64,000 bases of DNA from Burkholderiaceae bacterium (lineage in GTDB: Bacteria > Pseudomonadota > Gammaproteobacteria > Burkholderiales > Burkholderiaceae_C), in contig OZ245724.1 in assembly GCA_965227035.1 (NCBI GenBank), forward strand, positions 3,072,605-3,136,604, in the 5' to 3' direction. Both the position numbers and the translations under genes were made by a program. Positions 581 through 64,000 of the stretch are shown here, one piece after another (position 1 is the stretch's first letter; each line of letters begins with the position of its first letter). Below the pieces are notes generated by a model. That model worked only from the letters and a program-made list of their open reading frames with translations. It was not told the origin of the DNA and made no database searches.

Positions 581-605
581 CTCTATTCACCAGACCTGAT
601 GCTGA

Positions 606-1832: not shown

Positions 1833-1856
1833 TTACTACTTTCTGGTAACTGAGAC

Positions 1857-1890
1857 AAAAAAAGAGCGCTCGGTCGGGAGCGCTCTTTTT
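1857..1890. terminator. Rho-independent terminator-like hairpin between the two binding-protein genes
   Basis: A7-GAGCGCTC-ggtcgg-GAGCGCTC-T5: an 8-bp GC stem extendable by 5 A:T pairs. Read on the minus strand the stem is followed by T7. Confidence 0.6.
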
Positions 1891-1896
1891 AAAAAC

Positions 1897-3099: not shown

Positions 3100-3143
3100 G
3101 ATGGACGCTCCTGAGAAAAAATCTGCTTTGAAGAAACGGGATG

Positions 3144-3176
3144 GGTGAACTGACGAACCGGGTGAATCACGAACCG
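3144..3176. repeat. 17/16-bp tandem duplication spanning the livF-like stop codon
   Basis: ggtgaactgacgaaccg (3144-3160) followed by ggtgaatcacgaaccg (3161-3176). The stop codon (complement of 3167-3169) lies in the second copy. Confidence 0.7.
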
Positions 3177-3910
3177 AGGTAATGAGAAAGCACAGCGTCG
3201 TCGGCTAACAGATCCGTCGACTTGCCGTCATGCACCATGACCCCTTGCTTGAGGACATAAGCGCGATGAGAAAGCTTCAGTGCCGCACGCGCGTTCTGCT
3301 CGACGATCAGGATCGTGAGACCCGTATCGCGCAATTCGCGCAGCACCGAAAAAACGGTAGACACCATCACCGGCGACAGGCCGAGCGAGGGTTCGTCGAG
3401 CATCAGAAGCTTGGGACGCGCAAGAATAGGACGAGCCATTGCGAGCTGTTGCTGCTCGCCGCCCGACATGCTTCCTGCGGCCTGCTTCAGGCGCTCTTTC
3501 AATCTTGGAAACCGAAGGAACACGCGCTCGCATGCTTCTTCGAAAGACTCTGTAGTGCTGGTATCGCGATCGAACGCGATCTTCAGATTCTCCTGAACCG
3601 AAAGACGTCCGAGCGTGCCGCGCCCTTCAGGAATATGCAGCAAGCCCTTGCGTGCAATCGTGTGCACCGGCAATTTGGACAGGTCCATATCGCCGAAGGT
3701 CGCCGAACCGGTGGTTGGACGCAGCAGGCCGGAGAGCGTACGCATCAGCGTCGATTTACCGGCGCCGTTGGCTCCGATGACCGCGACGGTTTCGCCCTCT
3801 TTCACGTTTAGCGTGACGCCGCGCAGTGCCTTGATGGCACCGTAGTTGACATGCAGGTTGTCTACCGACAGAACGGGTTTGCCGCTCGGGCTGTTCATGG
3901 CATCGGTCAT
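3167..3910 (-). CDS. branched-chain-amino-acid-type ABC transporter ATP-binding protein (LivF-like)
   Basis: Walker A GANGAGKST, signature MSGGEQQ, Walker B LLMLDEPS. Its start overlaps the upstream stop by ATGA. Confidence 0.9.
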   Translation of the reverse strand: MTDAMNSPSGKPVLSVDNLHVNYGAIKALRGVTLNVKEGETVAVIGANGAGKSTLMRTLSGLLRPTTGSATFGDMDLSKLPVHTIARKGLLHIPEGRGTLGRLSVQENLKIAFDRDTSTTESFEEACERVFLRFPRLKERLKQAAGSMSGGEQQQLAMARPILARPKLLMLDEPSLGLSPVMVSTVFSVLRELRDTGLTILIVEQNARAALKLSHRAYVLKQGVMVHDGKSTDLLADDAVLSHYLGS

Positions 3911-4695
3911 GCTGCGACCTCCTCTTCGTCCGGCCCCAGATAGGCCTCGATGACTTGCGGATGCGTGAGCACCGATTCGACCGAGCCTTCGGTCACCAGC
4001 TTGCCCGCGATGAGCGCGATCAATCGGCTGGACAGCGCGCGAATCAAGGACATGTCGTGTTCAACCAGAAGAATCGCTTCGACACGCGAACGTGCCTTGC
4101 CGATGTCTTCCACCAGCGCTGCGGTCTCTTCTTCGTTCATGCCGGCGGCGGGTTCGTCGAGCAACAGCAGTTTGGGTTTGGTCGACAGCGCGCGTGCAAT
4201 TTCGAGCCGACGCGCAGCGCCGTACGGCAGGCTGCCGGCAGTCTGATCGGCCAGATGCGTGAGACGCATCAGATCGAGCAGTTCGATGGCAGCATCGAGG
4301 TTCTTGCGACGGCCGGTGAACATCGTGCGGAAAGGCGTGTATGCGGTTGCAGGATCTGCAACCAGCACGTTCTCCAGCACGGTCATGCGCTTGAACAGAC
4401 GGATGTTCTGGAAGGTTCTACCGATGCCGCTACGAGCCATCTTCTGGCGCGAGAATTCGGTGGCATCTTCGCCGTCGAACTGAATGGTTCCCGACGTAGG
4501 CGCGTAGAACTTGGTGACCAAATTGATGAACACCGATTTGCCTGCACCGTTGGGACCGACCACGCCGAGAATCTCTCCGCGCTTGATATCGATGGACACA
4601 TCGGACAGCGCAGTGAGCCCGCCGAAAGTTTTGGTCATGTTGCGTGCGACGAGAATGGAATCGCCCACGTTCGAGGTGACTGGAGTCGCGCTCAT
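3907..4695 (-). CDS. branched-chain-amino-acid-type ABC transporter ATP-binding protein (LivG-like)
   Basis: I use the internal start MSATPVTSNVGDSILVARNMTKTFGG (codon 171 of the 432-aa track ORF; ATG = complement of 4693-4695). It overlaps the permease stop as ATGA. Walker A GPNGAGKS, LLLLDEPAAG. Confidence 0.85.
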   Translation of the reverse strand: MSATPVTSNVGDSILVARNMTKTFGGLTALSDVSIDIKRGEILGVVGPNGAGKSVFINLVTKFYAPTSGTIQFDGEDATEFSRQKMARSGIGRTFQNIRLFKRMTVLENVLVADPATAYTPFRTMFTGRRKNLDAAIELLDLMRLTHLADQTAGSLPYGAARRLEIARALSTKPKLLLLDEPAAGMNEEETAALVEDIGKARSRVEAILLVEHDMSLIRALSSRLIALIAGKLVTEGSVESVLTHPQVIEAYLGPDEEEVAA

Positions 4696-5561
4696 TGCAC
4701 TTCCTCCTTCAGCTTCGCGAGTGTCTCGTGTTGCTCGACAGACTCTTTGCGCGACAACTTGATCGTCTTGAATCGCTTCACGGTCAGGCCTTGAGGACGG
4801 AACAGCAGCAGCACGATGATCACGACTGCAAATACAGTCGGACGCCATTCGCGCATGAAGGTCACTTCTTCCGGAACGATGGTCATGATCGCCGCGCCGA
4901 GTGCGCATCCGAGCATGTTGTTGGTGCCGCCCAAAATCACGAACATCACGGCGTAAGTCGACATGAGAACGTTGAACGTATCGGGACGCACGAAGGTGAG
5001 GTAGTGACCGTAGAGGCCGCCGGCGTAACCGCAGATCGCGGAGCCGATCGAGAAAGCCATCAGCTTCACGAACACCGAGTTGATGCCCAGTGCCGCAGCG
5101 ATGTCGTCGTCTTCGCGCACCGCATCGATAGTTCGCTGCAAGGGAGAAATCGACAGCAGGAAAAGCGCGATGCCGACAACCGCCACCGAGATACCTGCAT
5201 GCCACAAGGTTGCACCGCTCATGCCGCCGAAGCCGACCGAGCTACCGACGTATTCGACGTTCTCGAAAATCACTTGCGTGGACATAGCGATGCCGAGCGT
5301 CGTGAGAATCAGGTAGATACCGCGAAGGCGAAGCGCGGGATAGCCGAGGATGAATCCGGCAAGACCTGCGCCGATGCCGCCCACGATGCAGGCAGGGATC
5401 AAAGGCATGCCGAATTTGACGGTCAGGATGCCCGCGCCGTAGCAACCCATGGCCACGAATGCTGCCGCGCCGAAGTTCAACACACCCGCCGACAAGGCGA
5501 TGTACACACCCCATGCCATGAGGATGTTGATGCAGGCGAAGAAAAGAATATCTGGGGTCAT
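4692..5561 (-). CDS. ABC transporter permease (LivM-like)
   Basis: 289 aa, polytopic and hydrophobic. Operon position between the LivH-like and LivG-like genes. Confidence 0.85.
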   Translation of the reverse strand: MTPDILFFACINILMAWGVYIALSAGVLNFGAAAFVAMGCYGAGILTVKFGMPLIPACIVGGIGAGLAGFILGYPALRLRGIYLILTTLGIAMSTQVIFENVEYVGSSVGFGGMSGATLWHAGISVAVVGIALFLLSISPLQRTIDAVREDDDIAAALGINSVFVKLMAFSIGSAICGYAGGLYGHYLTFVRPDTFNVLMSTYAVMFVILGGTNNMLGCALGAAIMTIVPEEVTFMREWRPTVFAVVIIVLLLFRPQGLTVKRFKTIKLSRKESVEQHETLAKLKEEVQ

Positions 5562-6445
5562 GCGCGTGTCGCTCCACCGTGGAAGACGCTACCGAACAGC
5601 CCTTGAGGACGAATCAACAGCACGAGAATCATGACCGCCCAGACCAGCAGATCGACCAGATATCCGTAGCCGAACTGAGTGGCCATGGCTTCGACCACAC
5701 CGATGAGCAGGCCGCCGATGACCGCACCCCACGCATTGCCCATGCCGCCGATTGCGGTAATGGCCAACGCCTTCAGGCCGAAGGTCAAACCGATGTCCGA
5801 GTTGACCGTGCCAACGCGAAGAGCGAACAGCAGACCCGCCAGCGCAGCGAGCGCAGACGAAAGAAAGAACACCTGCTGCCCCACCTGCTTGACTGGAATG
5901 CCGAGCAGAGATGCGTTGGTGGCGTTGTCTGCCACAGCACGAATGTTGCGCCCCATCTTGGTTTTCTCGAGCAGCAAATGCAGGCCGATGACGAACACTG
6001 CCGTAAGAACAATTACCAGACCTTGAACCGGCACGAAACGAACACCGGCAATTTCGAAACTGCCCGATCCGAAGTTGTTTACGAGCGGAAGCGCCAAGGG
6101 CTCGGTGCCCCACTTGTGGTGGACCAGATCGATGATCAGCAGGCCGACCGCCATGGACGACAAGGCTGCAGTGATGTTGGCTTCTTCGGAATTGAGGTTA
6201 CGAAAGCTGATGCGTTCGACCACGATGCCGAGAATTCCACCAAGCACGAAAGCCATCAACATGGCCAACGGGATCGAAGGCGCGATCGAGGCCGACACCA
6301 AACCGATGAAGCCGCCGATCATGAAGACTTCGGTATGAGCGAAGTTCAACCGATGCAGCACGCCCACGATGTGCGTGAAGCCTACGGCCACGAGTGCGTA
6401 AAGCCCCCCGACCATCAGCCCGTTAAGTATTTGTCCAGCAAACAT
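5558..6445 (-). CDS. ABC transporter permease (LivH-like)
   Basis: 295 aa. Begins MFAGQILNGLMVGGLYALVAVGF, typical of the LivH family. 4-nt overlap with the next gene. Confidence 0.85.
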   Translation of the reverse strand: MFAGQILNGLMVGGLYALVAVGFTHIVGVLHRLNFAHTEVFMIGGFIGLVSASIAPSIPLAMLMAFVLGGILGIVVERISFRNLNSEEANITAALSSMAVGLLIIDLVHHKWGTEPLALPLVNNFGSGSFEIAGVRFVPVQGLVIVLTAVFVIGLHLLLEKTKMGRNIRAVADNATNASLLGIPVKQVGQQVFFLSSALAALAGLLFALRVGTVNSDIGLTFGLKALAITAIGGMGNAWGAVIGGLLIGVVEAMATQFGYGYLVDLLVWAVMILVLLIRPQGLFGSVFHGGATRA

Positions 6446-6479
6446 GCGTTGATCGCTTCCGGTTCAGGTCGGTTGAAAA

Positions 6480-7220
6480 TTAGAAGTGCGACATGAGCTT
6501 GCCGAAGCCCTGGATCTTGTCGTTGATACCGACTGCGCGAAGCGCGTGCCAGTACGTGGCGGTGTTGATCGCAATGACGGGCTTGCCGAGAAAGAGTTCC
6601 GCAGCTGCTGCAAAGCGAATGGCCGACAGGTTGGTGCCGACCTGCACGATCGCATCGACGTCGTCGCCATTGAGTTGCATCAGTGCATCGCGAACCATGT
6701 CGTCGGTGGTGTACGCAATCGCGACCGGGCTGGGACGACGCAGGCAGATATCGCGAACCACCGTGAAGCCGCAGTCTTGATAGAAGCGACGAACCTGATC
6801 GTTGGCGACAGGGAAATAAGGCGAGAAGAACGCGATCTTCTTTGCACCGTAGGCGTTCAGCGCCGCTTCGGTCGCGAAGGATCCGCAAGACACGCCCACG
6901 CCCACGCGGTCACGCATCAGCTGAAGGTATTTTTCTGCGCCGGCACGGCCGTCCCAGAAAGTCGCAGCAGACATGCCCATGACCAGATACTGGATCTCGC
7001 AGCTCTTCAACACGTCGGCAGCCTGCAGCGTGTTTTCCTGAATGTTTTGCACCAGTTGCAAAAACTCTGCATCGGTGTTGACCGGATCGTTAGGAATCAC
7101 GATGCGGCTGTAGTGGTTGGTCACGCCGACCGGACGCAGATCGTCGAAGTCGGGTTGAACGATGGTGTTGGTGGAGGGGCCGAGAGCCCCGAACTTCATT
7201 CGATAACCTAGATGATCCAT
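6480..7220 (-). CDS. Asp/Glu/hydantoin-racemase superfamily protein (maleate isomerase / arylmalonate decarboxylase-like)
   Basis: 246 aa. The N-terminal GALGPSTNTIVQPDF matches the (I/V)VPSSNT-type motif of this family, and length and layout fit. The expected catalytic Cys positions read GMS and GTN (see findings). The start could also be M8 (7199). Confidence 0.7.
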   Translation of the reverse strand: MDHLGYRMKFGALGPSTNTIVQPDFDDLRPVGVTNHYSRIVIPNDPVNTDAEFLQLVQNIQENTLQAADVLKSCEIQYLVMGMSAATFWDGRAGAEKYLQLMRDRVGVGVSCGSFATEAALNAYGAKKIAFFSPYFPVANDQVRRFYQDCGFTVVRDICLRRPSPVAIAYTTDDMVRDALMQLNGDDVDAIVQVGTNLSAIRFAAAAELFLGKPVIAINTATYWHALRAVGINDKIQGFGKLMSHF

Positions 7221-7256
7221 GTCACACGTCCACTTCTGAATTTCAATTCGATTGCA

Positions 7257-7292
7257 ATTGCGACTACTTTTGCGATTGCGATTACTTTTGCG
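7257..7292. repeat. 18-bp x2 tandem duplication spanning the stop codon of the isochorismatase-like gene
   Basis: attgcgactacttttgcg / attgcgattacttttgcg (1 mismatch). On the coding strand this reads ..S Q K TAA S Q | S Q K TAG S Q. Confidence 0.8.
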
Positions 7293-7905
7293 ATGCGAGC
7301 GCAGCCAGGAACTCGTCGCGCGTCATCACGTCTGCGTACTTCTGGCGCATGTCGAACAGGTTCGCTTCATGCGGCTCCATCGCGCGATCGCCGACGCAGT
7401 CCTCGATCACGATGGTGCGGAAATTGAACTGCACTGCGTCGATCACGGTGGCGCGAATGCAGCCGCTGGTGGTGCAGCCAGTCACGATAGCCGTGTCGAC
7501 GCCGCGGAATCGCAGCCACTCCGACAAGCCTGTCGAGAAGAACGCAGATGCGCCCTGCTTGCGAACCACGAACTCGCCGTCACCGGGCGTGAGCTCGGAG
7601 ACGAATTGCGAGATGTGCGATGTTTCGGTCAGCGTGCGAAGACCGGGCACTTTCATGCTGAAGGCATTCGCACCGGCTTCGTTTTCCGGATACACGACGC
7701 GCGTGTGTGCGACCGGCAAACCTTGTTCGCGAAATGCTGCAAGCAAAGGCACGGTCGCATTCACGGCTTCGACAATGTGCGGGCCACCGAAGTGTTCCGG
7801 ATCGACGAAACCGTTCACGAAGTCCACCAGGATCAGACCGCAGCGCTTACCGATGCCTACGGTCTGCCCGAACTTCTGTTTCTTGTAGACGTCGTCGCGG
7901 CTCAT
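7282..7905 (-). CDS. isochorismatase-family cysteine hydrolase (maleamate/N-carbamoylsarcosine amidohydrolase-like)
   Basis: 207 aa. LILVDFVNGF (Asp block) and VTGCTTSGCIRAT (nucleophile Cys block) are hallmarks of the isochorismatase/CSHase family. Confidence 0.85.
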   Translation of the reverse strand: MSRDDVYKKQKFGQTVGIGKRCGLILVDFVNGFVDPEHFGGPHIVEAVNATVPLLAAFREQGLPVAHTRVVYPENEAGANAFSMKVPGLRTLTETSHISQFVSELTPGDGEFVVRKQGASAFFSTGLSEWLRFRGVDTAIVTGCTTSGCIRATVIDAVQFNFRTIVIEDCVGDRAMEPHEANLFDMRQKYADVMTRDEFLAALASQK

Positions 7906-8843
7906 GCTTTTTCCGTCGCCTTCATCACTTCTTTCGCGATGGCAGGCTTGTTGTCTGCGTGTGCGGAGTCGAACTCGGCAACCCAGTCGAAGCCGAGCAG
8001 CGTCGAGAACTTCTGGAAGTCATGAACCGGGGCGGTCAACTCTGCGCTAGAACGAGTCTTCTTGAAGGTGTTGTAGACGCTTTCGAAAGCAGCGCCAGCA
8101 GCCAGGAAAGCCGCCGAGGGGAAGATAGCCAGGCGGTAGCCAACGCGTGCCAATTCGGCCTCGGACAGCACCGGTGTGCGGCCGCCTTCGACCATGTTCG
8201 CAAGCATCGGCTTGTCGAATGCCTTGCCGATTTTTTCCATCTCTTCGATGGACTCCGGGCTCTCGACGAAAAGAATGTCGGCTCCTGCCTTGGAATACAT
8301 CTCCATGCGGCGAAGCGCTTCGTCCAGGCCGTGAACGGTGCGCGCATCGGTACGGGCGATGATCTGGAAATTCTTGTCGGTGCGGGTTTCGACTGCAACC
8401 TTGATCTTCGCGACCATGTCTTCGGCAGGCACCACGCGGCGACCCAGCATGTGGCCGCACTTCTTCGGGAATTCCTGGTCTTCGAGCTGGATGACGCAAG
8501 CGCCGGCTTCTTCGTAGCTGCGCACCGTGTGCATCACGTTGAGCAAACCACCGTAGCCGGTATCGCCATCGCAAATCATTGGGGTGTCGGTGATGGACGT
8601 GAGCTGCTTGACCCGGTTGATCATGTCCGAGAAGCTAGCGATGCCCGCATCGGGCATGCCCAGATACGAGGCAACCGTGCCGTAGCCGGTCATGTACAGG
8701 GCGTCGAAGCCCATGCGATCGGCCATCTTGGCGGAAATGCCTTCGAAGATGCCGGGAGCAATGACGAGCTTGCCACTGTCCATGCGTGCTTTGAGTTCTG
8801 CGCGTTTTTGCGCATTCGTTTTTGTGGTCAGACCTTGTTTCAT
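7902..8843 (-). CDS. isocitrate lyase / PEP mutase family enzyme (methylisocitrate-lyase / oxaloacetate-decarboxylase-like)
   Basis: 313 aa. Family motifs ICDGDTGYGG, QLEDQEFPKKCGH and ARTDA. ATGA overlaps at both ends. Confidence 0.85.
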   Translation of the reverse strand: MKQGLTTKTNAQKRAELKARMDSGKLVIAPGIFEGISAKMADRMGFDALYMTGYGTVASYLGMPDAGIASFSDMINRVKQLTSITDTPMICDGDTGYGGLLNVMHTVRSYEEAGACVIQLEDQEFPKKCGHMLGRRVVPAEDMVAKIKVAVETRTDKNFQIIARTDARTVHGLDEALRRMEMYSKAGADILFVESPESIEEMEKIGKAFDKPMLANMVEGGRTPVLSEAELARVGYRLAIFPSAAFLAAGAAFESVYNTFKKTRSSAELTAPVHDFQKFSTLLGFDWVAEFDSAHADNKPAIAKEVMKATEKA

Positions 8844-10042
8844 TGGATGGACTCCGCGCGCTCAAGCGCATCGATCATTGATGTTTTGCGCAGGTAGTCC
8901 CGCGCAGCTTCTGGATTCGCCGCTATCTCCCGCAGCTCTTGGTGATTCTTCTCGCGCGCAGCCGCATCGCGTTCTTCGATGTGCTTCTTGTTGCGCGCGG
9001 TATTTGCGTTGATGTATTCGATGGCCACCTGACGGCGCTGGCGTTCGTAGCGATCGAGCAGCGATGCATCGGCCCTGCCGGTCAGCACCGCGATGAGCTT
9101 CTCGCTCACGTTGAAAGCGTCCTGCACTCCGCCGTTCATGCCCATGCCGCCCAGCGGATTGTTCACGTGTGCGGAATCGCCTGCGAGCAGCACGCGGCCC
9201 TTGCGGAATTCCTTGGCAACACGTTGGTGAACCTTGTACAGAGTGCGGTGAACCGTCTTGTAGGGCACCGGCTGGGGCAGCAGCTTTTGCAGGCGCGCCT
9301 GAACCGACTCGTCGCTCAGCAGCTCTTCGTCGCTGATTTCCGGCGGCACCGGGAACAGAACGCGCCACAGCGCCGGCACGCGCAACAGCACGCACCATTC
9401 TTCCGGATCCGATATGTAGTTCACGTAAGAGAGCTTGGGGAAGTGATCGGCGTATTCGAAATCGGTCGAGACCACGAGGAATCGCTCCGGATAGGTGAAA
9501 CCTTCGAATTCGATACCCAGGACCTGACGAACCGTGCTCCAGGCGCCGTCGGCACCGATCAGGTAATCGCCGGTGAAGCTTCGTTCTTCGCCGTCGATGG
9601 TTGCAGTCAGCGTGACCGAATCTGCGTCCTGCGTCACGTCCTTGACGACCGCGTTGAACAGCACTTCTGCGTGGGGCAGCTTGTCGAGCTGCTCTTTAAG
9701 AAGGCGGGTGAGCTTCCATTGCTCGCACTGAAGGCGATACGGGTGGTCGGTCACGTCCTTGAGCAACTCCATGTCGAACTCGGCCACCAGACCTTCGGTG
9801 CGATCGCGCTGCTGGGTGTAGCGCGCGACCAGCCCCTGTTCGACCAGCTTGGGCACGATGCCGAACTGATCCAGCAGATCCATCGTGGGTGGGTGAAATG
9901 TGGAGGCGCGAAGGTCGTCCGCGAGAAGCGGTGCCCGTTCGACAACGGTCACCTTGATGCCCGCTTGTGCGAGCTTGAGCGCGCTGACCAGACCGACAGG
10001 GCCTGCTCCGGCGATCAATACGTGTGAAGAAGCTTGAGTCAT
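8840..10042 (-). CDS. FAD-dependent aromatic-ring monooxygenase (PheA/UbiH-type)
   Basis: I use the internal start MTQASSHVLIAGAGPVGLVSALKLAQAG (codon 54 of the track ORF; ATG = complement of 10040-10042). GxGxxG dinucleotide fold and GDSAHVNNPLGGMGMNGGVQDA motif. Confidence 0.85.
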   Translation of the reverse strand: MTQASSHVLIAGAGPVGLVSALKLAQAGIKVTVVERAPLLADDLRASTFHPPTMDLLDQFGIVPKLVEQGLVARYTQQRDRTEGLVAEFDMELLKDVTDHPYRLQCEQWKLTRLLKEQLDKLPHAEVLFNAVVKDVTQDADSVTLTATIDGEERSFTGDYLIGADGAWSTVRQVLGIEFEGFTYPERFLVVSTDFEYADHFPKLSYVNYISDPEEWCVLLRVPALWRVLFPVPPEISDEELLSDESVQARLQKLLPQPVPYKTVHRTLYKVHQRVAKEFRKGRVLLAGDSAHVNNPLGGMGMNGGVQDAFNVSEKLIAVLTGRADASLLDRYERQRRQVAIEYINANTARNKKHIEERDAAAREKNHQELREIAANPEAARDYLRKTSMIDALERAESIQ

Positions 10043-56115: not shown

Positions 56116-57534
56116 TCAGGCCTTTTCGACGGTCTTTACGCTGGTCTGTGCGCCCGAGTTTCTTGCGGCTCTTCGTGCCAGCGATTCGATCATCGGATGC
56201 GCATTGAAACGCGCCATCATCCGGGTCTTCGAAAGCTGGGTGATAGCCGATTCTGCAATCATCTTCGGCCAGGTCTCGTACGCCGCCTTAACGCATGCCG
56301 ATATGGCGGCCATCGCTGGTTTCTCCGGAATGCTCAGCGCCGAGCAAAACGCGCGAACCATAGCGGGCGAGAGAGATTGTTTTGGCGCCGCCCCGCCCTC
56401 CAACGGCTCCGCTTTGGGACTCAAGCCTGGTGGGACGATGAACAGCGCGTGACCCTTCGCGGTATTGAAGGCCGAGTACGCGACGATGTCATAGGCCGGA
56501 GGAAACTCCGGCGTCCTGCCGTCCGGATATCGCAGGCCCATATTTTTGAGATGCATGTCCGGATTACCGAGCAACTCGTTCACGACGAGTCTTCGAAGTA
56601 GCTCGTGCACTGCAGACTCGCCAAGCGAAGGTTCGCTCATCAATACGGCTGCAACGCTCAGATAGGTTTGCGGATTCGCCCGATCGGCACCGCGGTATTT
56701 GTCTTCCGGCATCTCGCCCAGGACCTGCGCGAAGTCTTCGCAATGGATGCGTCCTTCGGGCGAGCGATCGTATCGAACAACTGCGAGAAAGTTGGTTTGA
56801 GCGTCGATGTTGCCGAGGTCGTAATCGTGCTGCGCGCCGAGTTTTTCCAATGGCTCCAGGTACGCTTCGCATGCGTTCACGCCGGCCGCGCGCGCGAGTC
56901 GTAGCGAGAGGTCTTCCACCTCGGGCAGCATTGGCTGACCCGTTACCGGAAGCTTTGCAATGATCGAGGTATCGCGATCCTTCGTGCGGCCAACGTATCT
57001 GTCGCCCAACTTGATCACGCCGAGTTTCGGTTGCACACCCGAGAGCGATACGCCCTCGTCGAGAGGATCTGCGGTGACCGACATTTCCAGCGCGTCCTGA
57101 TCTTGCGTCACGTAATGAGCAAGTTCGTCTCGAGTCAACTCGACAGGCAGCGCGTAGATGTTTCCGGGCAGATCCTTGCCGCACGCGGCCAGCATTTCGA
57201 AATGATCTTTCGGATCGCATTGGCGAAGCGCCGCAACATGATCGCGGAACACGCCTTCGGGCAAAAGGTTCTGAAAATACGAGGGCAGCAGCCATCCGTT
57301 CGCCGCCGAGTAGCGCCCGTTGAATGGTGCCGATGCGATGCTGGCCCACAGCGCCTGTTGCTGCTCGGGGCTTTCGGCCAAATAGGAAAGTGAAATAAGC
57401 GGAGCGTCGCGAAGATTGCGAAACGCCACGTCGGCTTCGAATCGATTGATGACTGCGGCTCCGGCGGACGCGTACTGGAACAGCACGCCGACCCGCAGTG
57501 TGCCTAGATAGATGCCGAGCGCCTTGACGTTCAT
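56116..57534 (-). CDS. hipA: type II toxin HipA-family serine/threonine kinase
   Basis: 472 aa. SLSGVQPKLG (P-loop-like motif) and LLGNPDMHLKNMGL (catalytic loop). ATGA overlap with the upstream HTH gene. Confidence 0.9.
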   Translation of the reverse strand: MNVKALGIYLGTLRVGVLFQYASAGAAVINRFEADVAFRNLRDAPLISLSYLAESPEQQQALWASIASAPFNGRYSAANGWLLPSYFQNLLPEGVFRDHVAALRQCDPKDHFEMLAACGKDLPGNIYALPVELTRDELAHYVTQDQDALEMSVTADPLDEGVSLSGVQPKLGVIKLGDRYVGRTKDRDTSIIAKLPVTGQPMLPEVEDLSLRLARAAGVNACEAYLEPLEKLGAQHDYDLGNIDAQTNFLAVVRYDRSPEGRIHCEDFAQVLGEMPEDKYRGADRANPQTYLSVAAVLMSEPSLGESAVHELLRRLVVNELLGNPDMHLKNMGLRYPDGRTPEFPPAYDIVAYSAFNTAKGHALFIVPPGLSPKAEPLEGGAAPKQSLSPAMVRAFCSALSIPEKPAMAAISACVKAAYETWPKMIAESAITQLSKTRMMARFNAHPMIESLARRAARNSGAQTSVKTVEKA

Positions 57535-57869
57535 TCTGCGTCTCGCATGGTGTCGTTGGCGGAAGCGATCCGGTCGAGTGCCGCCTGGACTTTCGATTTG
57601 ACCGCCGGTGCTGCTGATTCATCCGACCCTGCATATTCGTTCACTGCATTCACTGCATTTGCCGCGCCTTTCGGCACCAGGAGAAGCTCCAGCCCCAGCC
57701 TGTCTGCCAGCGCCAGCAAGGTGCTGAGCTTGAAATCTTCCTTGCCGCTGAGGACATTCGTGAGCGTGCGACCGGAGATGCCGGCCATCGCCTTGAGTTC
57801 GGCCTGAGTGAGGTTAAGGCGGGTGAGCGCGGCGCGTAATTGCTCTGAGGTTTCGGCAAGCGTTTTCAT
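57531..57869 (-). CDS. hipB: HipB-like XRE-family HTH antitoxin
   Basis: 112 aa. HTH LTQAELKAMAGISGRTLTNVLSGKEDFKLSTLLALADRLGLEL. Immediately upstream of and overlapping hipA. Confidence 0.8.
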   Translation of the reverse strand: MKTLAETSEQLRAALTRLNLTQAELKAMAGISGRTLTNVLSGKEDFKLSTLLALADRLGLELLLVPKGAANAVNAVNEYAGSDESAAPAVKSKVQAALDRIASANDTMRDAE

Positions 57870-57992: not shown

Positions 57993-58994
57993 TCAGTCGG
58001 CAGGTACTGGCTTCTTGACCGTCGGACGCTCGGTCCACATGCCGCGTCTGGCGTTGTCTTCGGTAATTTCCATCAACTGCGCCGCCACGGCAGAAACCGC
58101 GCTGCTCGGCCCCTTGCTTTTGGAGAACGCCATCGACACGAACCGCTGAATCGGCGGATTCACGATTCGCGTGGCCTGAAGCTGGCCGCTCGCGATCTCG
58201 TTCCAGACCGCGTGAATCGGCAGCACCGTGTAGAGCTTCTCGTGCTCGACCACCGAACGCATGATCGGCAGCGAATCGGCCTCGATTGCGGGCGACAAAT
58301 CGACCCGCTCCTGACGCGCCAAAGAATCGAGCGCAGTCCGCAATCCATTGGGGGCGCTGGGCAGGATGAACGGCAAACCGTCCAGCGATTTGAAATCGAT
58401 TTCGTCCTGCTGCGTGAGTCGGTCGCCGGGCGCGCCGATCAAATAACTGTCGACCGTAGCGAGTGCCTGCTCACGTTCCGGCACTGTGGGCCCGTAGCGA
58501 TAAAGAATCGCAATGTCGATTCGCGAATCGGCCAACCATTCTTCGACCAGACCGCTAGATCCTTCGAGAATCTTGAGATGCACCGCCGGATGCTTGGCGC
58601 GCAGCTCCTTGAATAACCGTCCGATGATCGGGAAGGTAATAGACGGAAGCGCGCCCAAAATGACCCGCCCTGCCGGCTGGCGCGCTTCGCCGCGAATGTC
58701 GCTGAGCAGCTGGTCGGCGTCGGCAACGAGATCTTTCACGCGAGGAAAAATCCGCTGCCCCATTTCCGATAGCGTCACGCCGCGCCCGGTCCGATTGAAG
58801 AGGCGAGCCCCGCAATCGCGCTCCAGTCCGTTGATCTGCCGACTCAACAGCGACTGATTTCTATCCAGCGCAATAGCGGCGCGTGTCAGGCTGCCGAGCT
58901 CGGCAATCGCCAAAAAGGTGCGCCACCGCTGAAGATCGGAGATGGCGTCCACGTCGATATGGGCCGGGGAGTTGAGCGGGCGGGAGGCTTCCAT
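57993..58994 (-). CDS. LysR-family transcriptional regulator, divergent from the peroxiredoxin gene
   Basis: 333 aa. HTH LQRWRTFLAIAELGSLTRAAIALDRNQSLLSRQINGLE. Confidence 0.85.
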   Translation of the reverse strand: MEASRPLNSPAHIDVDAISDLQRWRTFLAIAELGSLTRAAIALDRNQSLLSRQINGLERDCGARLFNRTGRGVTLSEMGQRIFPRVKDLVADADQLLSDIRGEARQPAGRVILGALPSITFPIIGRLFKELRAKHPAVHLKILEGSSGLVEEWLADSRIDIAILYRYGPTVPEREQALATVDSYLIGAPGDRLTQQDEIDFKSLDGLPFILPSAPNGLRTALDSLARQERVDLSPAIEADSLPIMRSVVEHEKLYTVLPIHAVWNEIASGQLQATRIVNPPIQRFVSMAFSKSKGPSSAVSAVAAQLMEITEDNARRGMWTERPTVKKPVPAD

Positions 58995-59120
58995 TTATAT
59001 CGATTGTGCATGTGAACATGTAGAAAATGGATTTGCCACGATGCGCCCTGTTGAGTCACCATCGTCTGTCAAACTCCCATCGTCCAACCGACAAACCGCT
59101 AAAAACAGGAGATAAGTTTC

Positions 59121-59774
59121 ATGGCTCTTCGCATCAACGACACCGTTCCCGATTTCTCTGCAGAGACCGATCAGGGCCCCATCAAATTTCACGACTGGAT
59201 CGGCTCCGACTGGGCCATCCTGTTCTCGCATCCCAAAGACTTCACGCCCGTGTGCACCACCGAATTCGGCGCAGTGGCACAACTGTCCGCCGAATGGGCC
59301 AAGCGCAAGACCAAGGTGATCGGCGTGTCGGTGGACGACGCGGAATCGCACAAAAAATGGAAAGGCGACATCGAGAAGTATTGCGGAACCACCGCCGGTT
59401 TCCCGATCATTGCCGACGTCGGCCTGGCCGTGTCGAAAGCATTCGACATGCTGCCCGCCGAAGCCTACCTTCCCGATGGCCGCACACCCAACGACACCGC
59501 TACGGTGCGCTCGGTTTTCATCATCGGCCCGGACAAGAAGGTCAAGCTGTCGATGACCTACCCCATGTCGGTAGGTCGCAACTTCGCCGAAGTGTTGCGC
59601 GCGCTGGATGCGTTGCAGCTCACCTTCAATGTGCCGCTCGCTACGCCTGCAAATTGGAGCGTTGGGGAAGATGTGATCGTGGCGCTGGCGTTGAATGACG
59701 AGCAGGCTAAGGAGAAGTATGGGGAGCTGGATAAGAAGTTGCCGTATTTGAGGACGGCGCGGGCGCCTAAGTGA
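59121..59774 (+). CDS. 1-Cys peroxiredoxin (Prx6 subfamily)
   Basis: 217 aa. FSHPKDFTPVCTTE peroxidatic-Cys motif. AGGAGA SD. Confidence 0.9.
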   Translation: MALRINDTVPDFSAETDQGPIKFHDWIGSDWAILFSHPKDFTPVCTTEFGAVAQLSAEWAKRKTKVIGVSVDDAESHKKWKGDIEKYCGTTAGFPIIADVGLAVSKAFDMLPAEAYLPDGRTPNDTATVRSVFIIGPDKKVKLSMTYPMSVGRNFAEVLRALDALQLTFNVPLATPANWSVGEDVIVALALNDEQAKEKYGELDKKLPYLRTARAPK

Positions 59775-59869
59775 ACTAATAGTCTATAGCGCTCCCGACA
59801 CCTTGGGGTTAGTCCTCAACTGGCTCTCCTTATCTAACTTCTGCAGCGAGCAAGTTGCCTTACGCGTGA

Positions 59870-61774
59870 TCAGTTTGCGTAAGTCATGTTCGCTTCAACG
59901 GTGTCAGCGTCATTCTCCGCGTCAATACCCTCATCGCCGGACTCCCCTGCATATGCAGTCTTGCCAGTTGCCAGTTCAATCAACGTCAACAATCGCTGTT
60001 GTCGGTCCGCCATAAACGCGCCGAAGTCATCATCGCGTATCAACTTAGGGGTAATGAGGTGAGAGTCTAGGTAAGCGTTGAGTCTCTGCCCATCTATGGC
60101 GGGCGTTGCCGCGTCACCGTTCGACAACCTTGCCAAATATTCTGATGGTGCGACTCCACCAATCATTCGGTTCGTTCGAAACGACAAGGGCGTCTTATTG
60201 ATGATGGAATCGAATACTGACGGTTTAATGCCATGCTTTTTGCACCAGTCTTGCGGAAAGATGTGATGGATATCGACGTTTTCACCAAAAAAAACTGTGT
60301 GGTCGAATTTTTGGCCCGATCGGAAGTCCTGCGCCCCTTGCTTCATCAGCAAGGCATTGATTCCTTTGTACGCCGCAGAGAGGCGCATTCGCATCGTCTT
60401 CAGTCGATCGGCCCTGAAAATAGTTTCACTGACCGTACTTGGCTCGATACCGCCGTTGAGCCACGCGGGCACCTCCACAAAATCCTTCGCTATGCGAGTC
60501 TCCACCGTAGATCCATAAAGCTCTCCAAAAACCCCATTCCAATACCAACGCACTAACTTTTCGCGGTTTGCTTCGTGCTCCCACGCGTCGCCTATGTCCG
60601 CAAGAATTGCCGCCAACGGCACGATCTGCGACTGGTAGGGCAGGTCGAATATGCGATAGATGTGAAGCAAATGCAAAAACTTTGCCGCCTTCAAAAACCC
60701 TGCCTCAACTCGGCTCTCGTATTGTTTGTACGCGGCGAGTGGCAAGCCAAGCAGCGCTTGGCGATTGCCGGTGACGGCGGGCAACTCTTTCCCCTGCTTC
60801 CCAGCGAGTTCAGCCTGACGGCGGCGATCACGAGTGTAGAAAAGCGAAATCGCTTGCAAAAAATCGGTATTGCCTACGTTGGCAATGATTCCTGCCTCGG
60901 AGTCCGCAGGTTTCAAAGTATCGACAAAACGGCGATGGCGACCACGTGAGTGGTCATCGCCATACCAATCCTTGCGCAACTCGTGACCATCTGACGCGTA
61001 CATCGCCGTCACCAATTCAAAAGCATCTAAGGGCTTACCGCCTGTGTTCACTTTTTCAAACACAACGCATACGGCCTCTTTCGTAGTGCTCCTATCCAAC
61101 GCGATTACCGGCACGCGGTACGACTTGAAGTTTTCCAGCACCTCTCGCTTAAAACGTCTGAACTCCTCTCGCACGGTTTCGTGCTCGTCACCGCGCCACG
61201 CTTTATCGAATCCGTCTTGCCACTTATCCCAATCGAAGACTTTCGTCACCGGATACATCAGTAGCTTGTATTCTTGCTCCGCCGAAGAAAGATCCGGACC
61301 TGCTTCCCGGCCGAATTCGCCACGAACTATTCGATCCTCAGGAACGCCCAATATGGCTTCCTCGCGATCTGCTGAGGCATCCAACGCTTTACGAATGTCG
61401 ATGTAAAACCACCGCTTGACTTTCTTTTTCTTGGGCGTGACCGTATCAACTACCTTGTCTCTCATAGACACTTGGTACAGCGAGGTCATGCGCTGTTGTC
61501 CATCCAACAATAAGGAGAACGGCTTCATTTCCTTAGATGCCGCTGGAACCCCTTCAATTGGTCGCGGCTTGAAATTAACGTCGCCACCCGTTTCAAGTGT
61601 CATCAACGCTCCCACTGGGAAAGCACGCGAAATTGACGCGATCAGACTTTTAATTCGATCCTCGTCCCATACCCAACTACGCTGAAAATCTGGCAACTGC
61701 AGCGCGCCAAGGTGACAGTCCTCAAGCAGTTTGGATAGATCGTACGGGTTGGTTTGGAACGTTGAGCCGGCCAT
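59870..61774 (-). CDS. DUF262/DUF1524 protein, GmrSD-type (type IV modification-dependent restriction / SspE/BrxU-like) nuclease
   Basis: 634 aa. N-terminal LQLPDFQRSWVWDEDRI, LLLDGQQRMTSLYQ and VVFEKVNTGGKPLDAFEL (DUF262/ParB-like NTPase motifs). C-terminal DIHHIFPQDW..INKTPLSFRTNR (His-Me finger, DUF1524-like). Confidence 0.8.
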   Translation of the reverse strand: MAGSTFQTNPYDLSKLLEDCHLGALQLPDFQRSWVWDEDRIKSLIASISRAFPVGALMTLETGGDVNFKPRPIEGVPAASKEMKPFSLLLDGQQRMTSLYQVSMRDKVVDTVTPKKKKVKRWFYIDIRKALDASADREEAILGVPEDRIVRGEFGREAGPDLSSAEQEYKLLMYPVTKVFDWDKWQDGFDKAWRGDEHETVREEFRRFKREVLENFKSYRVPVIALDRSTTKEAVCVVFEKVNTGGKPLDAFELVTAMYASDGHELRKDWYGDDHSRGRHRRFVDTLKPADSEAGIIANVGNTDFLQAISLFYTRDRRRQAELAGKQGKELPAVTGNRQALLGLPLAAYKQYESRVEAGFLKAAKFLHLLHIYRIFDLPYQSQIVPLAAILADIGDAWEHEANREKLVRWYWNGVFGELYGSTVETRIAKDFVEVPAWLNGGIEPSTVSETIFRADRLKTMRMRLSAAYKGINALLMKQGAQDFRSGQKFDHTVFFGENVDIHHIFPQDWCKKHGIKPSVFDSIINKTPLSFRTNRMIGGVAPSEYLARLSNGDAATPAIDGQRLNAYLDSHLITPKLIRDDDFGAFMADRQQRLLTLIELATGKTAYAGESGDEGIDAENDADTVEANMTYAN

Positions 61775-62288
61775 AAATTCTCGAATTAGGAAAGTTCAAA
61801 TGCTCTCGATTGTTCGGTGTTTCACCGCTAATCATGCGAAGTAGCAGCATTAAAAATCAACTGCAATCGTGGGTCTACTTAATTATGTGCTAGTCATTGG
61901 ATACCATCGAATGACAAAAATTGTGTGAACGAGAAGTTCGCAGGACCCGTCTACTTCAGCAACCCATTTTCCCAACAACTTTGATTTTCCGCCGCGTAGA
62001 TTTTTCACTAGGGTTGCTGCAACGCGCAAGGCGCGCACCACTACTTTCAAATTTCGTTGTCCCGAGTAATTGGATCTCTGCTTACCGAACAACGTATCAA
62101 ACTTCGTCGTATCGAAAAGAGCATCGTAAAAATGTCTTTCCTCAATACACCGCCAATGCCATTCCTCAGAAATAGGTGTCTTAGATTACGCGGCGAGTCT
62201 TTGCGAGAACGCTTGGTCAAAATGTGGGCACGTCGACCTGTGATGGCAAGATGTCTCCTAGTGCATTCTTTAAAGCGCGGTTTGCCCA

Positions 62289-63245
62289 TTACTCAAAAAG
62301 CGCTTCGCCAGGTAGCGTCGCACGGATAGTAGCTTTCAATTTGTTGGCGGCTTCATCCAAATTCGCCGGATCCCACACCACCGTTAAATGGTGATTTGTG
62401 TCGAAATGGGTACCCTGACTCTTATCGTTGAATACGTCCTTGCGACACAGATAGATCACTGGCTTGCCAAGCCCTTCCGCGAACCCCGCCTCCCAATAAG
62501 CGCCTTTATTGTGGTGAGTTAGATCCGCAAGCAAAAATCGACTTTTCCTTATTTCTACACGCAAGCGGTCGTCGATAAGTCCTGCGGGCTGAGCATCATC
62601 AAGGCGCTTCAGATCAAAGCCAGTTGCCGCTACTGCCGGAAGAAAAAAGTCGTTAACAACAGCGTCCAAATCTGACTGTCCGAACTGCATCGCGATAAAC
62701 GCGGAGCGACCTGAAGTTTGTCCGCGCTCAAGTTCTTCGTAATAGTTCCACCCGTGCAACGTCAAGCGCAGCTCGTGAACACTAAATTCCCCACCTATAA
62801 AGTCTGCGAATTCGCATTGAATATAGCCAGACTGCTTCGCGTGACTTAGCAGCACTCGCACAGACCGCATGTCCTTGGCGCCCACAGCTGAAAGGACAGC
62901 TTCTGACATTTCAACAGTCGCACCCAAAGTCGGCAAAGACTCCCCCATCCACGAAATCAAGTTCTCAAGTTGCTCTTGCGGTTTTGGAAGGACAGTCCCT
63001 GTGATGATGTTGCCCAATAACTCGCTATCAAGCATGGCCCATTGTTGGCGCTTGGTCATGCGATGAAGCGCGTAACTCAACTTATCGCGTGCCTCGGGGC
63101 GCTGATTCAAGCGCCAACTTAGTTCGTCGAGAGCAGTACGCGACAAGGAAAATCCGCCACAGCGAGGGCATTCATAAAAGAGCCTTTCCCCGCGGTCTTC
63201 ACTCTTGATCAAATCGTGCTTACAGACTGGACATGATTCGGCCAT
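62289..63245 (-). CDS. uncharacterised protein: N-terminal 4-Cys zinc ribbon + C-terminal nucleoside 2-deoxyribosyltransferase/TIR-like domain
   Basis: I place the start at MAESCPVCKH (ATG = complement of 63243-63245), with GAGGAA 5 nt upstream; an in-frame ATG at 63275 is also possible. CPVC-x17-CPRC, then ..SAFIAMQFGQSD.. and ..RFLLADLTHHNKGAYWEAGFAEGLGKPVIYLC... 318 aa. Confidence 0.7.
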   Translation of the reverse strand: MAESCPVCKHDLIKSEDRGERLFYECPRCGGFSLSRTALDELSWRLNQRPEARDKLSYALHRMTKRQQWAMLDSELLGNIITGTVLPKPQEQLENLISWMGESLPTLGATVEMSEAVLSAVGAKDMRSVRVLLSHAKQSGYIQCEFADFIGGEFSVHELRLTLHGWNYYEELERGQTSGRSAFIAMQFGQSDLDAVVNDFFLPAVAATGFDLKRLDDAQPAGLIDDRLRVEIRKSRFLLADLTHHNKGAYWEAGFAEGLGKPVIYLCRKDVFNDKSQGTHFDTNHHLTVVWDPANLDEAANKLKATIRATLPGEALFE

Positions 63246-63518
63246 ATGTTTCCTCGTTGGATAGCGCAAAGGCATATGCCGATGCGCTTTGCACGTTCAC
63301 TCCGACAAGAGTGGCGCGTTGCTTTTTGGCCGCGACGACTCGCATCCTTTACCACTTACATAAAGCGAGTGATCAGCAAAGACAAGCCCGTTGTTCGGCG
63401 GAAATTTTCTTATCGCAGCACTGCCGACAGCATGAATGTTGGCGTTGGCTGTACCGAAGATACGCCGCCCTTCCAAAATTAACAGCGCGAAGGCCGCACC
63501 ATCTAGCTCGGTGCGTTC

Positions 63519-63542
63519 AGCCCTAGCGGAGATTCTAGGGCT
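63519..63542 (-). terminator. hairpin downstream of glmS (possible terminator)
   Basis: AGCCCTAG-cggagatt-CTAGGGCT (8-bp stem), about 75 nt after the glmS stop. There is no clear T run on the minus strand, so confidence is low. Confidence 0.3.
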
Positions 63543-63616
63543 ATGACTGACTTATTTCGAACTCGCAAGACGATCAAGTTTTCAACCTGACCGCCACCTA
63601 ACCAGCTTCACCCCCC

Positions 63617-64000
63617 TCACTCCACCGTCACACTCTTAGCCAAATTCCTCGGCTTATCCACATCCGTCCCCCTCGCACACGCCGTGTGATACGCCAGCAA
63701 CTGCAGCGGCACCACATGCAGCAGCGGTGATAGCGCGCCGTAGTGCTCCGGCATGCGGATCACGTGAATGCCGTCTTCGTTTTCGATGCGGCTGTCGGCG
63801 TCGGCCAGCACGTAAAGCACGCCGCCTCGTGCGCGGACTTCCTGCAGATTGCTTTTGAGTTTCTCGATGAGCGAATCGTTGGGCGCTACCGCGACCACGG
63901 GCATCTCGCTCGTGACGAGAGCAAGCGGGCCGTGCTTCAACTCGCCGGCTGCGTACGCTTCGGCGTGAATGTAGGTGATCTCTTTGAGTTTGAGCGCGCC
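63617..64000 (-). CDS. glmS: glutamine--fructose-6-phosphate aminotransferase, C-terminal part (5' end outside the window)
   Basis: The frame stays open to the right edge: [40 protein letters not shown]...[31 protein letters not shown], the canonical GlmS C-terminus. Confidence 0.95.

Follow-up and report, generated by a model that had tools for sequence, protein, structure and literature searches.

The locus and its restriction-modification remnant

The stretch analyzed here, 64,000 nucleotides of contig OZ245724.1 from a Burkholderiaceae bacterium (assembly GCA_965227035.1) and hereafter called the window, carries close to one end a minus-strand gene for a 318-residue protein in which a zinc ribbon, a helical segment, and a winged helix precede a predicted nucleoside 2-deoxyribosyltransferase (NDT)/DNPH1-superfamily domain. 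Read along the minus strand, glmS (ending at 63617) is followed by a 371-nt spacer, the 318-residue gene, a 514-nt spacer, and a gene for a GmrSD-type enzyme (61774..59870), beyond which Pfam searches of the flanking genes place a convergent gene for a 1-Cys peroxiredoxin. GC content is 0.45–0.54 across ~59750..63500, against 0.56–0.62 in most intervals of the flanking backbone, and this profile bears out the low-GC islet proposed in the initial annotation; the GmrSD-type neighbor reported there was likewise recovered, by its Pfam GmrSD_N match, and also fits the PADLOC models PDC-M55C (1.8e-26) and HEC-05 (1.2e-15). The C-terminal 276 residues of this neighbor (59870..60700, minus strand) gave no Pfam DUF1524 or GmrSD_C match at E ≤ 0.001 and contain a visible His-Me-finger-like DIHHIFP...N motif, so that its nuclease half seems divergent. 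The reading frame of the gene under study is uninterrupted and would encode 328 residues from its first ATG (62289..63275) or 318 from its second. Because a GAGGA lies 5 nt upstream of the second ATG and the homologs, which are ~319 residues long and all start M-x-x-x-C-P-V-C, agree with it in length and start, the second ATG is identified as the true start, as the coordinates first assigned to the gene had assumed. Public data hold a protein identical to the 318-residue product.

The gene was initially described as an orphan. It does stand alone now, but only as the outcome of decay in an ancestral type I restriction-modification (R-M) operon to which it belonged. Translated searches recovered an hsdR remnant between glmS and the gene, with 45% identity over 71 residues to the HsdR of locus L105 (E = 7e-16) and 47% over 58 residues to that of L007, and with L002 also matched; the same kind of search detected no hsdS or hsdM anywhere in the 64-kb window. 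In locus L184, the homolog is 66–68% identical to the window protein (the reference for all identities quoted for loci below), the backbone is syntenic with the window from 5-FTHF cyclo-ligase to glmU-glmS, and the corresponding slot reads glmS-hsdR-hsdS-gene-184-residue ORF-AbiEi. Because the window retains the hsdR remnant and the L184 slot contains hsdR and hsdS ahead of the gene, we read the locus as a decayed type I R-M island in which the 318-residue gene and the GmrSD gene survive. A comparable scar occurs in locus L095 (65% identity), where an 88-residue ORF (6715..6981) upstream of the gene joins HsdR residues 1–48 in frame to HsdS residues ~400–457. This relic marks another type I R-M deletion, independent of the one in the window, in which the gene was again left in place.

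A few further features lie around the gene. An imperfect palindrome with 22-nt arms that are 82% complementary (63258..63293) sits between the end of the hsdR remnant and the ribosome-binding site of the gene, at or near the deletion junction. The sigma-70-like match just upstream of the remnant may be the former operon promoter, possibly now driving the 318-residue gene; promoter and terminator scans gave site counts no higher than those in shuffled controls. Searches for transposon-like ends or direct repeats bounding the islet returned only short matches of chance size, and no tRNA was found.

Domain architecture and conservation

The AlphaFold model of the full-length protein (mean pLDDT 84.7) contains beta-alpha repeats over residues 181–310 that form a five-stranded Rossmann-like domain. 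Foldseek searches with this model were noisy, with ribosome and G protein-coupled receptor matches arising from long, poor superpositions; on that account only compact, domain-sized matches were used, and the N-terminal region was modeled separately (residues 1–178; pLDDT 93.6, pTM 0.85). Among the domain-sized matches to the C-terminal part, DNPH1/Rcl was found at probability 1.0 with template modeling (TM) scores of 0.55–0.66, and DNPH1/Rcl and NDT structures overall spanned 0.47–0.66 at that probability. Cyanobacterial NDT, SARM1, TIR-1, PdTIR, and the RPP1 TIR domain are also listed, the TIR domains scoring not clearly better than DNPH1/NDT, and a library of viral models returned “CMP/hydroxymethyl CMP hydrolase” and “nucleoside 2-deoxyribosyltransferase.” In Pfam, 45 of 45 family members matched Nuc_deoxyrib_tr (PF05014, clan Nribosyltransf) at E ≤ 0.01, the best at 1.2e-5, and none of the 45 matched a TIR (STIR clan) family at that threshold. 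In this superfamily, the catalytic Glu starts the helix that follows strand beta-3, as do E98 of LlNDT and E104 of DNPH1; in TIR domains it follows strand beta-C. Enzymes of the NDT/DNPH1 superfamily break or transfer N-glycosidic bonds of (deoxy)nucleosides or nucleotides, at an active site to which both subunits of a dimer contribute. Alignment with hhalign to human DNPH1, the sequence of which was checked against PDB entries 8qhr, 8qhq, and 4p5e, gave a gapless 38-column register that places E252 (YWEAG) on the DNPH1 nucleophile E104 (GYELG). Each of these lines is weak alone; because Foldseek, Pfam, and hhalign agree, we assign the domain to a divergent branch of the NDT/DNPH1 superfamily, to which it appears closer than to canonical TIR domains. 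The NDT/TIR-like fold suggested at the outset is therefore retained as NDT/DNPH1 (TIR-related) and dropped as canonical TIR.

Conservation was assessed in an alignment of 45 homologs that are 50–80% identical to the window protein. The C-terminal pattern from which the fold had been suspected, SAFIAMQFG...RFLLADLTHHNKGAYWEAGFAEGLGKPVIYLC, is present, and most of the string is invariant in this set. Invariant positions are L242, N246, the run G248-A249-Y250-W251-E252-A253-G254, the run A256-E257-G258-L259-G260, V263, Y265, and C267, and the motifs AGLIDD (221–226) and HFDTNHH (280–286, within HFDTNHHLT) are also invariant. The motif Glu thus occupies the nucleophile position as first proposed, being both invariant and aligned with E104 of DNPH1. 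Mean pairwise identity is 75% in the NDT-like half, 49% in the zinc ribbon, 48% in the helical part, and 39% in the winged helix, so that the N-terminal module evolves much faster than the domain to which it is attached.

The N-terminal module has three parts. Its CPVC-x17-CPRC zinc ribbon is present as described in the initial annotation, with all four Cys invariant in the 45 homologs; it matches Pfam Zn_ribbon_TFIIB (2e-5, 24.3 bits against a cut-off of 22) and folds as a three-stranded ribbon in both models, with pLDDT 87–95 over residues 1–35. The middle region, in which no motif had been recognized, resolves in the model and by Foldseek into a helical segment and a PadR/MarR-like winged helix. 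The latter matches PadR, MarR, and LmrR regulators with probabilities of 0.95–1.0 and TM scores of 0.5–0.67 over ~85–100 columns, and Foldseek found no solved structure that matches the N-terminal module as a whole. Over the ribbon (residues ~3–37), family members and the proteins of loci L197 and L198 also show sub-threshold Pfam matches to Lar_restr_allev (E 5e-4 to 2e-3; 19–21 bits for the L197 and L198 proteins against a cut-off of 28.6). This match probably reflects generic ribbon similarity, although it is notable given the type I R-M linkage.

Table 1. Coordinates of the gene, its predicted domains, and associated features in the window
Feature	Position	Strand	Details	Basis
CDS of the 318-residue zinc ribbon-winged helix-NDT-like protein	62289..63245	minus	stop codon 62289..62291	ORF list, homolog lengths, alignment
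Shine-Dalgarno sequence	63251..63255	minus	GAGGA, 5 nt before ATG at 63245	read from sequence
Zinc ribbon, residues 1–35	63141..63245	minus	four Cys: C5, C8, C26, C29	Pfam, invariant Cys, models
Helical linker/bundle, residues 36–104	62934..63140	minus	conserved S57, W69, P87, W99, G101	models, invariant columns
Winged helix-turn-helix (PadR/MarR-like), residues 105–175	62721..62933	minus	most variable part	N-terminal model, Foldseek
Predicted NDT/DNPH1-superfamily Rossmann-like domain, residues 179–318	62292..62711	minus		Pfam, Foldseek, hhalign
Putative nucleophile E252 (codon)	62490..62492	minus		
hsdR pseudogene remnant	~63276..63515	minus	HsdR residues ~9–104, one frameshift, then truncated	blastx/tblastn
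Sigma-70-like promoter match	63532..63560	minus	TCGAAA-17-TAGAAT, just upstream of hsdR remnant	consensus scan
GmrSD-type (DUF262 + His-Me finger) type IV restriction enzyme	59870..61774	minus	GmrSD_N, 7e-29	Pfam
Low-GC two-gene islet	59775..63616		between peroxiredoxin gene (59121..59774, plus) and glmS 3′ end (63617..64000, minus)	

Family distribution, module exchange, and genomic neighborhoods

Among 8000 candidates scored, 4849 homologs were found at E ≤ 1e-3. Counted as cluster representatives at 50% identity, the family comprises 11541, 6369, and 1874 members at E ≤ 1e-3, 1e-10, and 1e-30, respectively, and the best 150 representatives are nearly all approximately full length. By these counts the family is large, conserved in length, and far beyond chance, and it is unnamed: its members are annotated at source as “hypothetical protein” or “Zn-finger nucleic acid-binding protein” and, for distant plasmid copies, as “nucleoside 2-deoxyribosyltransferase,” NCBIfam gave no usable family assignment for the 318-residue protein, and literature searches found no description of the family and no phage-resistance data for it. 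Its occurrence is patchy across many phyla (464 matching stretches in a collection of one genome per species from 185,579 species), and members are also found on plasmids. Phages yielded 5 weak loci in 2.9 million viral contigs and none in 50,697 phage genomes; with the family virtually absent from phages, an origin as a phage-encoded or anti-defense gene was rejected.

The N-terminal module is not confined to NDT-like proteins. Used alone as a query, it recovers plasmid genes with different C-termini, as confirmed by ORF extraction, Pfam, and alignment. Proteins from plasmids of Rhizobium etli and Paracoccus carry the module, recognizable by CxxC...CxxC, RLSHA, LP..Q..N..W, VGA.D, and GW, followed by DUF4145, a HEPN family (Pfam 9e-12 and 6e-7), and an Agrobacterium vitis protein has it fused to a CAP12/Pycsar-type TIR domain (CAP12-PCTIR_TIR, 4e-23). 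The N-terminus of the A. vitis protein has been cut by an IS5 element, and its neighbors are a DUF4238 gene and other TIR genes. The motifs of the helical part are common to the HEPN- and TIR-fused relatives. Conversely, some genes next to SEFIR or ThiF/helicase genes join the NDT-like domain to a different N-terminus. As judged from these fusions, one predicted recognition module that is joined to three toxin-type effectors and outpaces its effector in evolution is the signature of abortive infection (Abi)-like sensor-effector proteins.

The neighborhoods of the close relatives are of a defense type, as had been suspected for the window. When the distinct loci that extend far enough upstream are compared, hsdS immediately precedes the gene in 10 of 17 loci at ≥55% identity, in none of 14 at 48–55%, and in 1 of 88 at <48%. 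The intergenic gaps range from −8 to +43 nt, with stop and start overlapping or nearly abutting, and the operon order is always hsdR-hsdS-gene-[variable cargo]-hsdM. Location inside an hsdR/S/M operon is accordingly seen for the clade, the window itself keeping only the hsdR remnant. The cargo consists of Schlafen/AlbA_2 with Fic/RhuM; Mrr with DarTG and Fic; RhuM/SRAP fragments; AbiEi; or, behind a 5′ fragment of hsdM, MazG_C with UDG/Panacea. In the last arrangement (L190, 4271..8740; L191, 6217..9114), a short HsdM N-terminal fragment directly follows the homolog and is succeeded by MazG_C, an unknown gene, UDG/SocA_Panacea, and full hsdM, a pattern suggesting that cargo entered at the 5′ end of hsdM with an accompanying duplication. 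L155 (45% identity; 267..8942) shows an atypical type I layout in which the gene keeps its place: a TOTE conflict-system protein (S1CSD-TOTE domains), HsdR, and an 828-residue HsdM-HsdS fusion precede it, and its start codon overlaps the stop codon of the fusion gene. According to published work, genes nested in type I operons are usually defense systems in their own right, and GmrSD homologs are often among them (PMC11411939).

Outside type I operons, L042 (47% identity; 4134..8327) is an island of a type IIG methylase, Mrr, the gene, DUF4062, and Schlafen/AlbA_2, in which two NDT/TIR-superfamily candidates are adjacent: the homolog and the DUF4062 protein, a member of the TIR-like NADase family Swarozyc. 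Other contexts include DUF4357 with NERD, PIN with Zeta/ParD, and further cargo including toxin-antitoxin pairs. A Septu-like ATPase/HNH pair accompanies the homolog on a Hydrogenimonas plasmid, and neighbors elsewhere match Mokosh, DISARM, BREX helicase, Shedu, DRT, and SoFic models. All-versus-all ORF clustering across 80 genome loci yielded no conserved partner gene; the recurrent neighbor clusters are antisense shadows of the gene itself or lineage-specific neighbors such as electron-transfer flavoprotein (ETF) genes. Nor are the homologs consistently embedded in nucleotide-salvage operons; in two lineages, the gene lies inside etfBA or fadBA operons.

A candidate Abi-like sensor-effector and its alternatives

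On balance, we lean toward the view that the 318-residue protein is a self-contained Abi-like sensor-effector, a putative N-glycosidase that would deplete NAD+ or nucleotides upon infection. The zinc ribbon, helical segment, and winged helix would constitute a rapidly evolving recognition module whose ligand is a phage protein or nucleic acid that signals infection, and the NDT/DNPH1-superfamily domain would be a latent N-glycosidase with Glu252 as its nucleophile. Activation would probably occur by oligomerization, as it does in NDT, DNPH1, and TIR enzymes. The active enzyme would then cleave the base-sugar bond of an abundant nucleotide (NAD+, or adenine or deoxy-nucleotides), and the loss of that nucleotide would starve the phage, arrest the cell, or both. 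What the analysis establishes is the domain anatomy, the conserved catalytic motif, the exchange of effectors behind one N-terminal module, the genomic contexts, and the R-M decay; the defense role, activation by oligomerization, the glycosidase activity and its substrate, and the infection cue are inferred. In the lineage of the window, the gene is carried as the first cargo after hsdS in type I R-M operons; this genome has lost the R-M genes, and the gene and GmrSD persist downstream of glmS. The lack of a conserved partner in 80 loci and the survival of the gene after R-M loss argue that it acts autonomously. In particular, two separate losses of R-M genes, one in the window and one in L095, left the gene undamaged, which argues against a need for the type I enzyme.

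Comparison with known systems places the protein near, but not within, several of them. The effector of retron Ec86 (Eco1) combines an NDT-like domain (E106) with a winged helix, depletes adenine derivatives, and has activity linked to dimer or filament formation (bioRxiv 10.1101/2023.08.16.553469). The window protein similarly pairs an NDT-superfamily domain and its Glu with a winged helix, but has the two in reverse order, the winged helix preceding the NDT-like domain, and adds a zinc ribbon. Moreover, the Ec86 system requires a reverse transcriptase (RT) and multicopy single-stranded DNA, whereas the islet holds only the 318-residue gene and GmrSD, with no RT gene. Other retron traits were also missing: there was no Rfam match within 58500..64000 at E ≤ 1, no RT-like conserved neighbor in the 80 loci, and no match to a PADLOC retron-effector model. 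With DNPH1/Rcl and the NDTs (PF05014), the protein shares the Rossmann-like fold, the (A)(D/E)xT...G..(Y/W)E.G.A...GKP motif, the Glu position, and the spacing from this Glu to strand beta-5; it differs from them in falling below the Pfam gathering cut-off, in its extra 175-residue N-terminal module, which we take as a candidate sensor, in the AGLIDD and HFDTNHH motifs that are invariant in its family, and in a genomic context that is not nucleotide salvage.

The combination of a recognition domain with a TIR/NDT-superfamily domain, a putative glycosidase, is also that of the DUF4062 Swarozyc proteins and of the CAP12/Pycsar-type TIR effectors. The former are TIR-like NADases that act as single-protein sensors, are triggered by phage portal protein, and cause abortive infection by NAD+ depletion; the latter are represented among the fusions of the family's own N-terminal module. 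Unlike TIR-like NADases, the window protein has no TIR Pfam match, and its sequence affinity is to NDT. A class of Abi N-terminal domains joined to toxins was predicted in silico by Anantharaman et al. in 2013, with AbiJ-NTD1 fused to DUF4145 and to NDT, and with DUF4145 fused to a zinc ribbon and found in R-M operons (PMC3710099). The window protein fits this predicted class, and the partner set of DUF4145 and NDT matches that of the present module; the 2013 prediction was computational and named no system. Finally, PrrC, TgvAB, RloF, and the PADLOC “embedded candidates” resemble the gene in lying inside type I R-M operons next to hsdS, in a slot shared with independent defense genes, but PrrC (ABC-ATPase and HEPN) and TgvAB (DUF262/DUF1524) are built from unrelated domains, and the window gene survives without R-M genes. 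The initial claim of an undescribed architecture therefore holds in that neither PADLOC v2 nor the literature provides a named system, and must be tempered by the class predicted in 2013 and by the NDT-like domain and winged helix of the Ec86 effector.

Several observations weigh against a sensor-effector with N-glycosidase activity. The Nuc_deoxyrib_tr matches score 22.1–22.2 bits, under the Pfam gathering cut-off of 28.8, and the hhalign register has weak statistics (E = 0.03). Sequence and profile searches of PDB sequences returned zinc-ribbon noise and nothing for the C-terminal domain, and we know of no counterpart of HFDTNHH that could be named in characterized NDT, DNPH1, or TIR enzymes. 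PADLOC v2 models gave nothing beyond a marginal match (E = 0.004) to a “TIR effector” model. The winged helix could equally mean a DNA-bound function. In the wider family, 145 immediate neighbors carry 147 Pfam families, mostly those of ordinary genes. In Planctomycetota, etfB and etfA flank the gene in the same orientation and an acyl-CoA dehydrogenase gene comes next, with gaps on the etfB side of −4 to ~25 nt (L077, 9052..13520; L065, L087, L082, L084, L088, and L053). In a beta-proteobacterial lineage it lies after fadB and ahead of fadA (L098, 4455..11266; L010, L016, L185, L110, and L121), its start in L098 sharing the last base of fadB. Depending on the locus, the fadB-fadA slot also accommodates VapBC-like PIN, HepT/MNT, ParE/Phd, DUF6933, or thioredoxin/TPR genes, and in this respect looks like an accessory-gene hotspot inside a beta-oxidation operon. 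The etf and fad placements, neither of them a usual setting for a defense gene, look like single lineage-specific insertions that were vertically inherited.

The constancy of the position after hsdS raises the question of whether the protein serves the type I enzyme itself. Much like PrrC, the gene for which adjoins hsdS in the EcoprrI locus, it could be a guard that docks on the R-M complex or monitors it, with an N-glycosidase that fires once the enzyme is disabled by a phage anti-restriction factor (an Ocr/ArdA-type DNA mimic or Stp). The invariable order hsdS-gene-variable cargo-hsdM, with the short gaps found in 10 of 17 close-clade loci, would be expected of such a guard, as would the recurrence of the gene in the same position after the unrelated HsdM-S fusion gene at 45% identity, and the sub-threshold ribbon matches point toward Lar_restr_allev, a type I restriction-alleviation protein. 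However, these matches lie below threshold and reflect a generic 4-Cys ribbon, hsdS is upstream in only 1 of 102 distinct loci below 55% identity, and an intact gene after two independent R-M deletions is hard to square with a toxin masked by the R-M complex. Where the gene is an orphan, it could still watch over type I systems located at other sites in the genome. We regard a guard function as unlikely; were it true, PrrC-EcoprrI would gain a second counterpart with an unrelated mechanism, in which a zinc ribbon and winged helix sense anti-restriction or the loss of HsdS/M.

If the ribbon and winged helix, two domains of nucleic-acid-binding type, were instead to bind DNA, the NDT-like domain might remove or exchange bases and thereby create abasic sites in phage or host DNA. 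Such a DNA-directed N-glycosidase would agree with the association of the gene with restriction systems and with an earlier proposal that Abi-linked NDT domains do to DNA what ricin does to RNA (PMC3710099). Yet free nucleotides or NAD+ are the substrates of the characterized enzymes with this fold, and conservation is lowest in the winged helix, which would not be expected of a dedicated DNA-binding surface; although attractive as a minority reading, this activity seems to us distinctly unlikely.

The structural matches allow a different substrate to be envisaged. The best structural neighbors are DNPH1, named 5-hydroxymethyl-dUMP N-hydrolase in the PDB, and phage models labeled “CMP/hydroxymethyl CMP hydrolase,” and the extended hhalign register, which places W291 on W143, gives the same spacing from the nucleophile Glu to strand beta-5 as in DNPH1. 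A DNPH1/MilB-like hydrolase of modified phage nucleotides, such as hydroxymethyl (hm)-dCMP, hm-dUMP, or similar, would then work in parallel to type IV restriction by GmrSD, the immediate neighbor of the gene in the window and no more than 5 kb from it in three other loci. Against such a role, GmrSD co-occurrence is rare, the DNPH1 phosphate-binding residues are not visibly conserved in the alignment, a simple metabolic hydrolase would not need a zinc ribbon or winged helix, and the N-terminal module is common to HEPN and TIR effectors, which are generic suicide toxins. Together, these points make a modified-nucleotide hydrolase an attractive but improbable reading.

The placements in etfBA and fadBA operons raise the question of a function outside defense, either as a nucleotide- or cofactor-sensing transcription factor, which the PadR/MarR-type winged helix would suit, or as a metabolite-repair enzyme tied to beta-oxidation and ETF. 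The etfB-gene-etfA-acyl-CoA dehydrogenase order, co-directional and with genes only a few bases apart, and the fadB-gene-...-fadA order would agree with such a tie. But the fadB-fadA slot also collects toxin-antitoxin pairs, the overall distribution is patchy and horizontally scattered, and the N-terminal module is fused to HEPN and TIR toxins as well. The DNA-binding-like part is, in addition, the most variable and the enzyme part nearly invariant, the opposite of what is expected of a regulator. We see little probability in a metabolic or regulatory role; should the gene prove to have no part in defense, its recurrent insertion into etfBA and fadBA operons would call for an explanation of its own.

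A two-gene defense module of the 318-residue gene and GmrSD, as the initial annotation had entertained, was rejected as very improbable: the genes are neighbors with a common orientation within one low-GC islet, but a 514-nt spacer parts them, GmrSD-like genes occur in the flanks of only 4 of ~168 other distinct loci (L021, L051, L071, and L076, at +1.3 to +8 kb and on mixed strands), there is no conserved partner gene, close relatives carry other cargo in the position of GmrSD, and GmrSD enzymes work alone and commonly fill type I cargo slots themselves (PMC11411939).

An Abi-like sensor-effector, if that is what the family encodes, would constitute a widespread and compact single-gene anti-phage system, with at least 1874 cluster representatives (50% identity) at E ≤ 1e-30 across many phyla and on plasmids. 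To our knowledge, NDT-type N-glycosidase chemistry in defense is so far known only from retron effectors. The reuse of one sensor with HEPN and TIR effectors would mean that identifying one trigger informs all three. The locus also offers a clean natural example of the decay of a type I R-M island with persistence of its cargo genes, which bears on the origin and annotation of “orphan” defense genes.

A HipBA-type pair lies ~2 kb from the islet, beyond the genes for a LysR regulator and the peroxiredoxin (56116..57869, minus strand). Its 472-residue HipA kinase (HipA_C, 1.9e-35; Couple_hipA, 1.1e-13) is encoded by a gene that overlaps by 4 nt an upstream gene for a 112-residue HTH_3 (HipB-like) protein.

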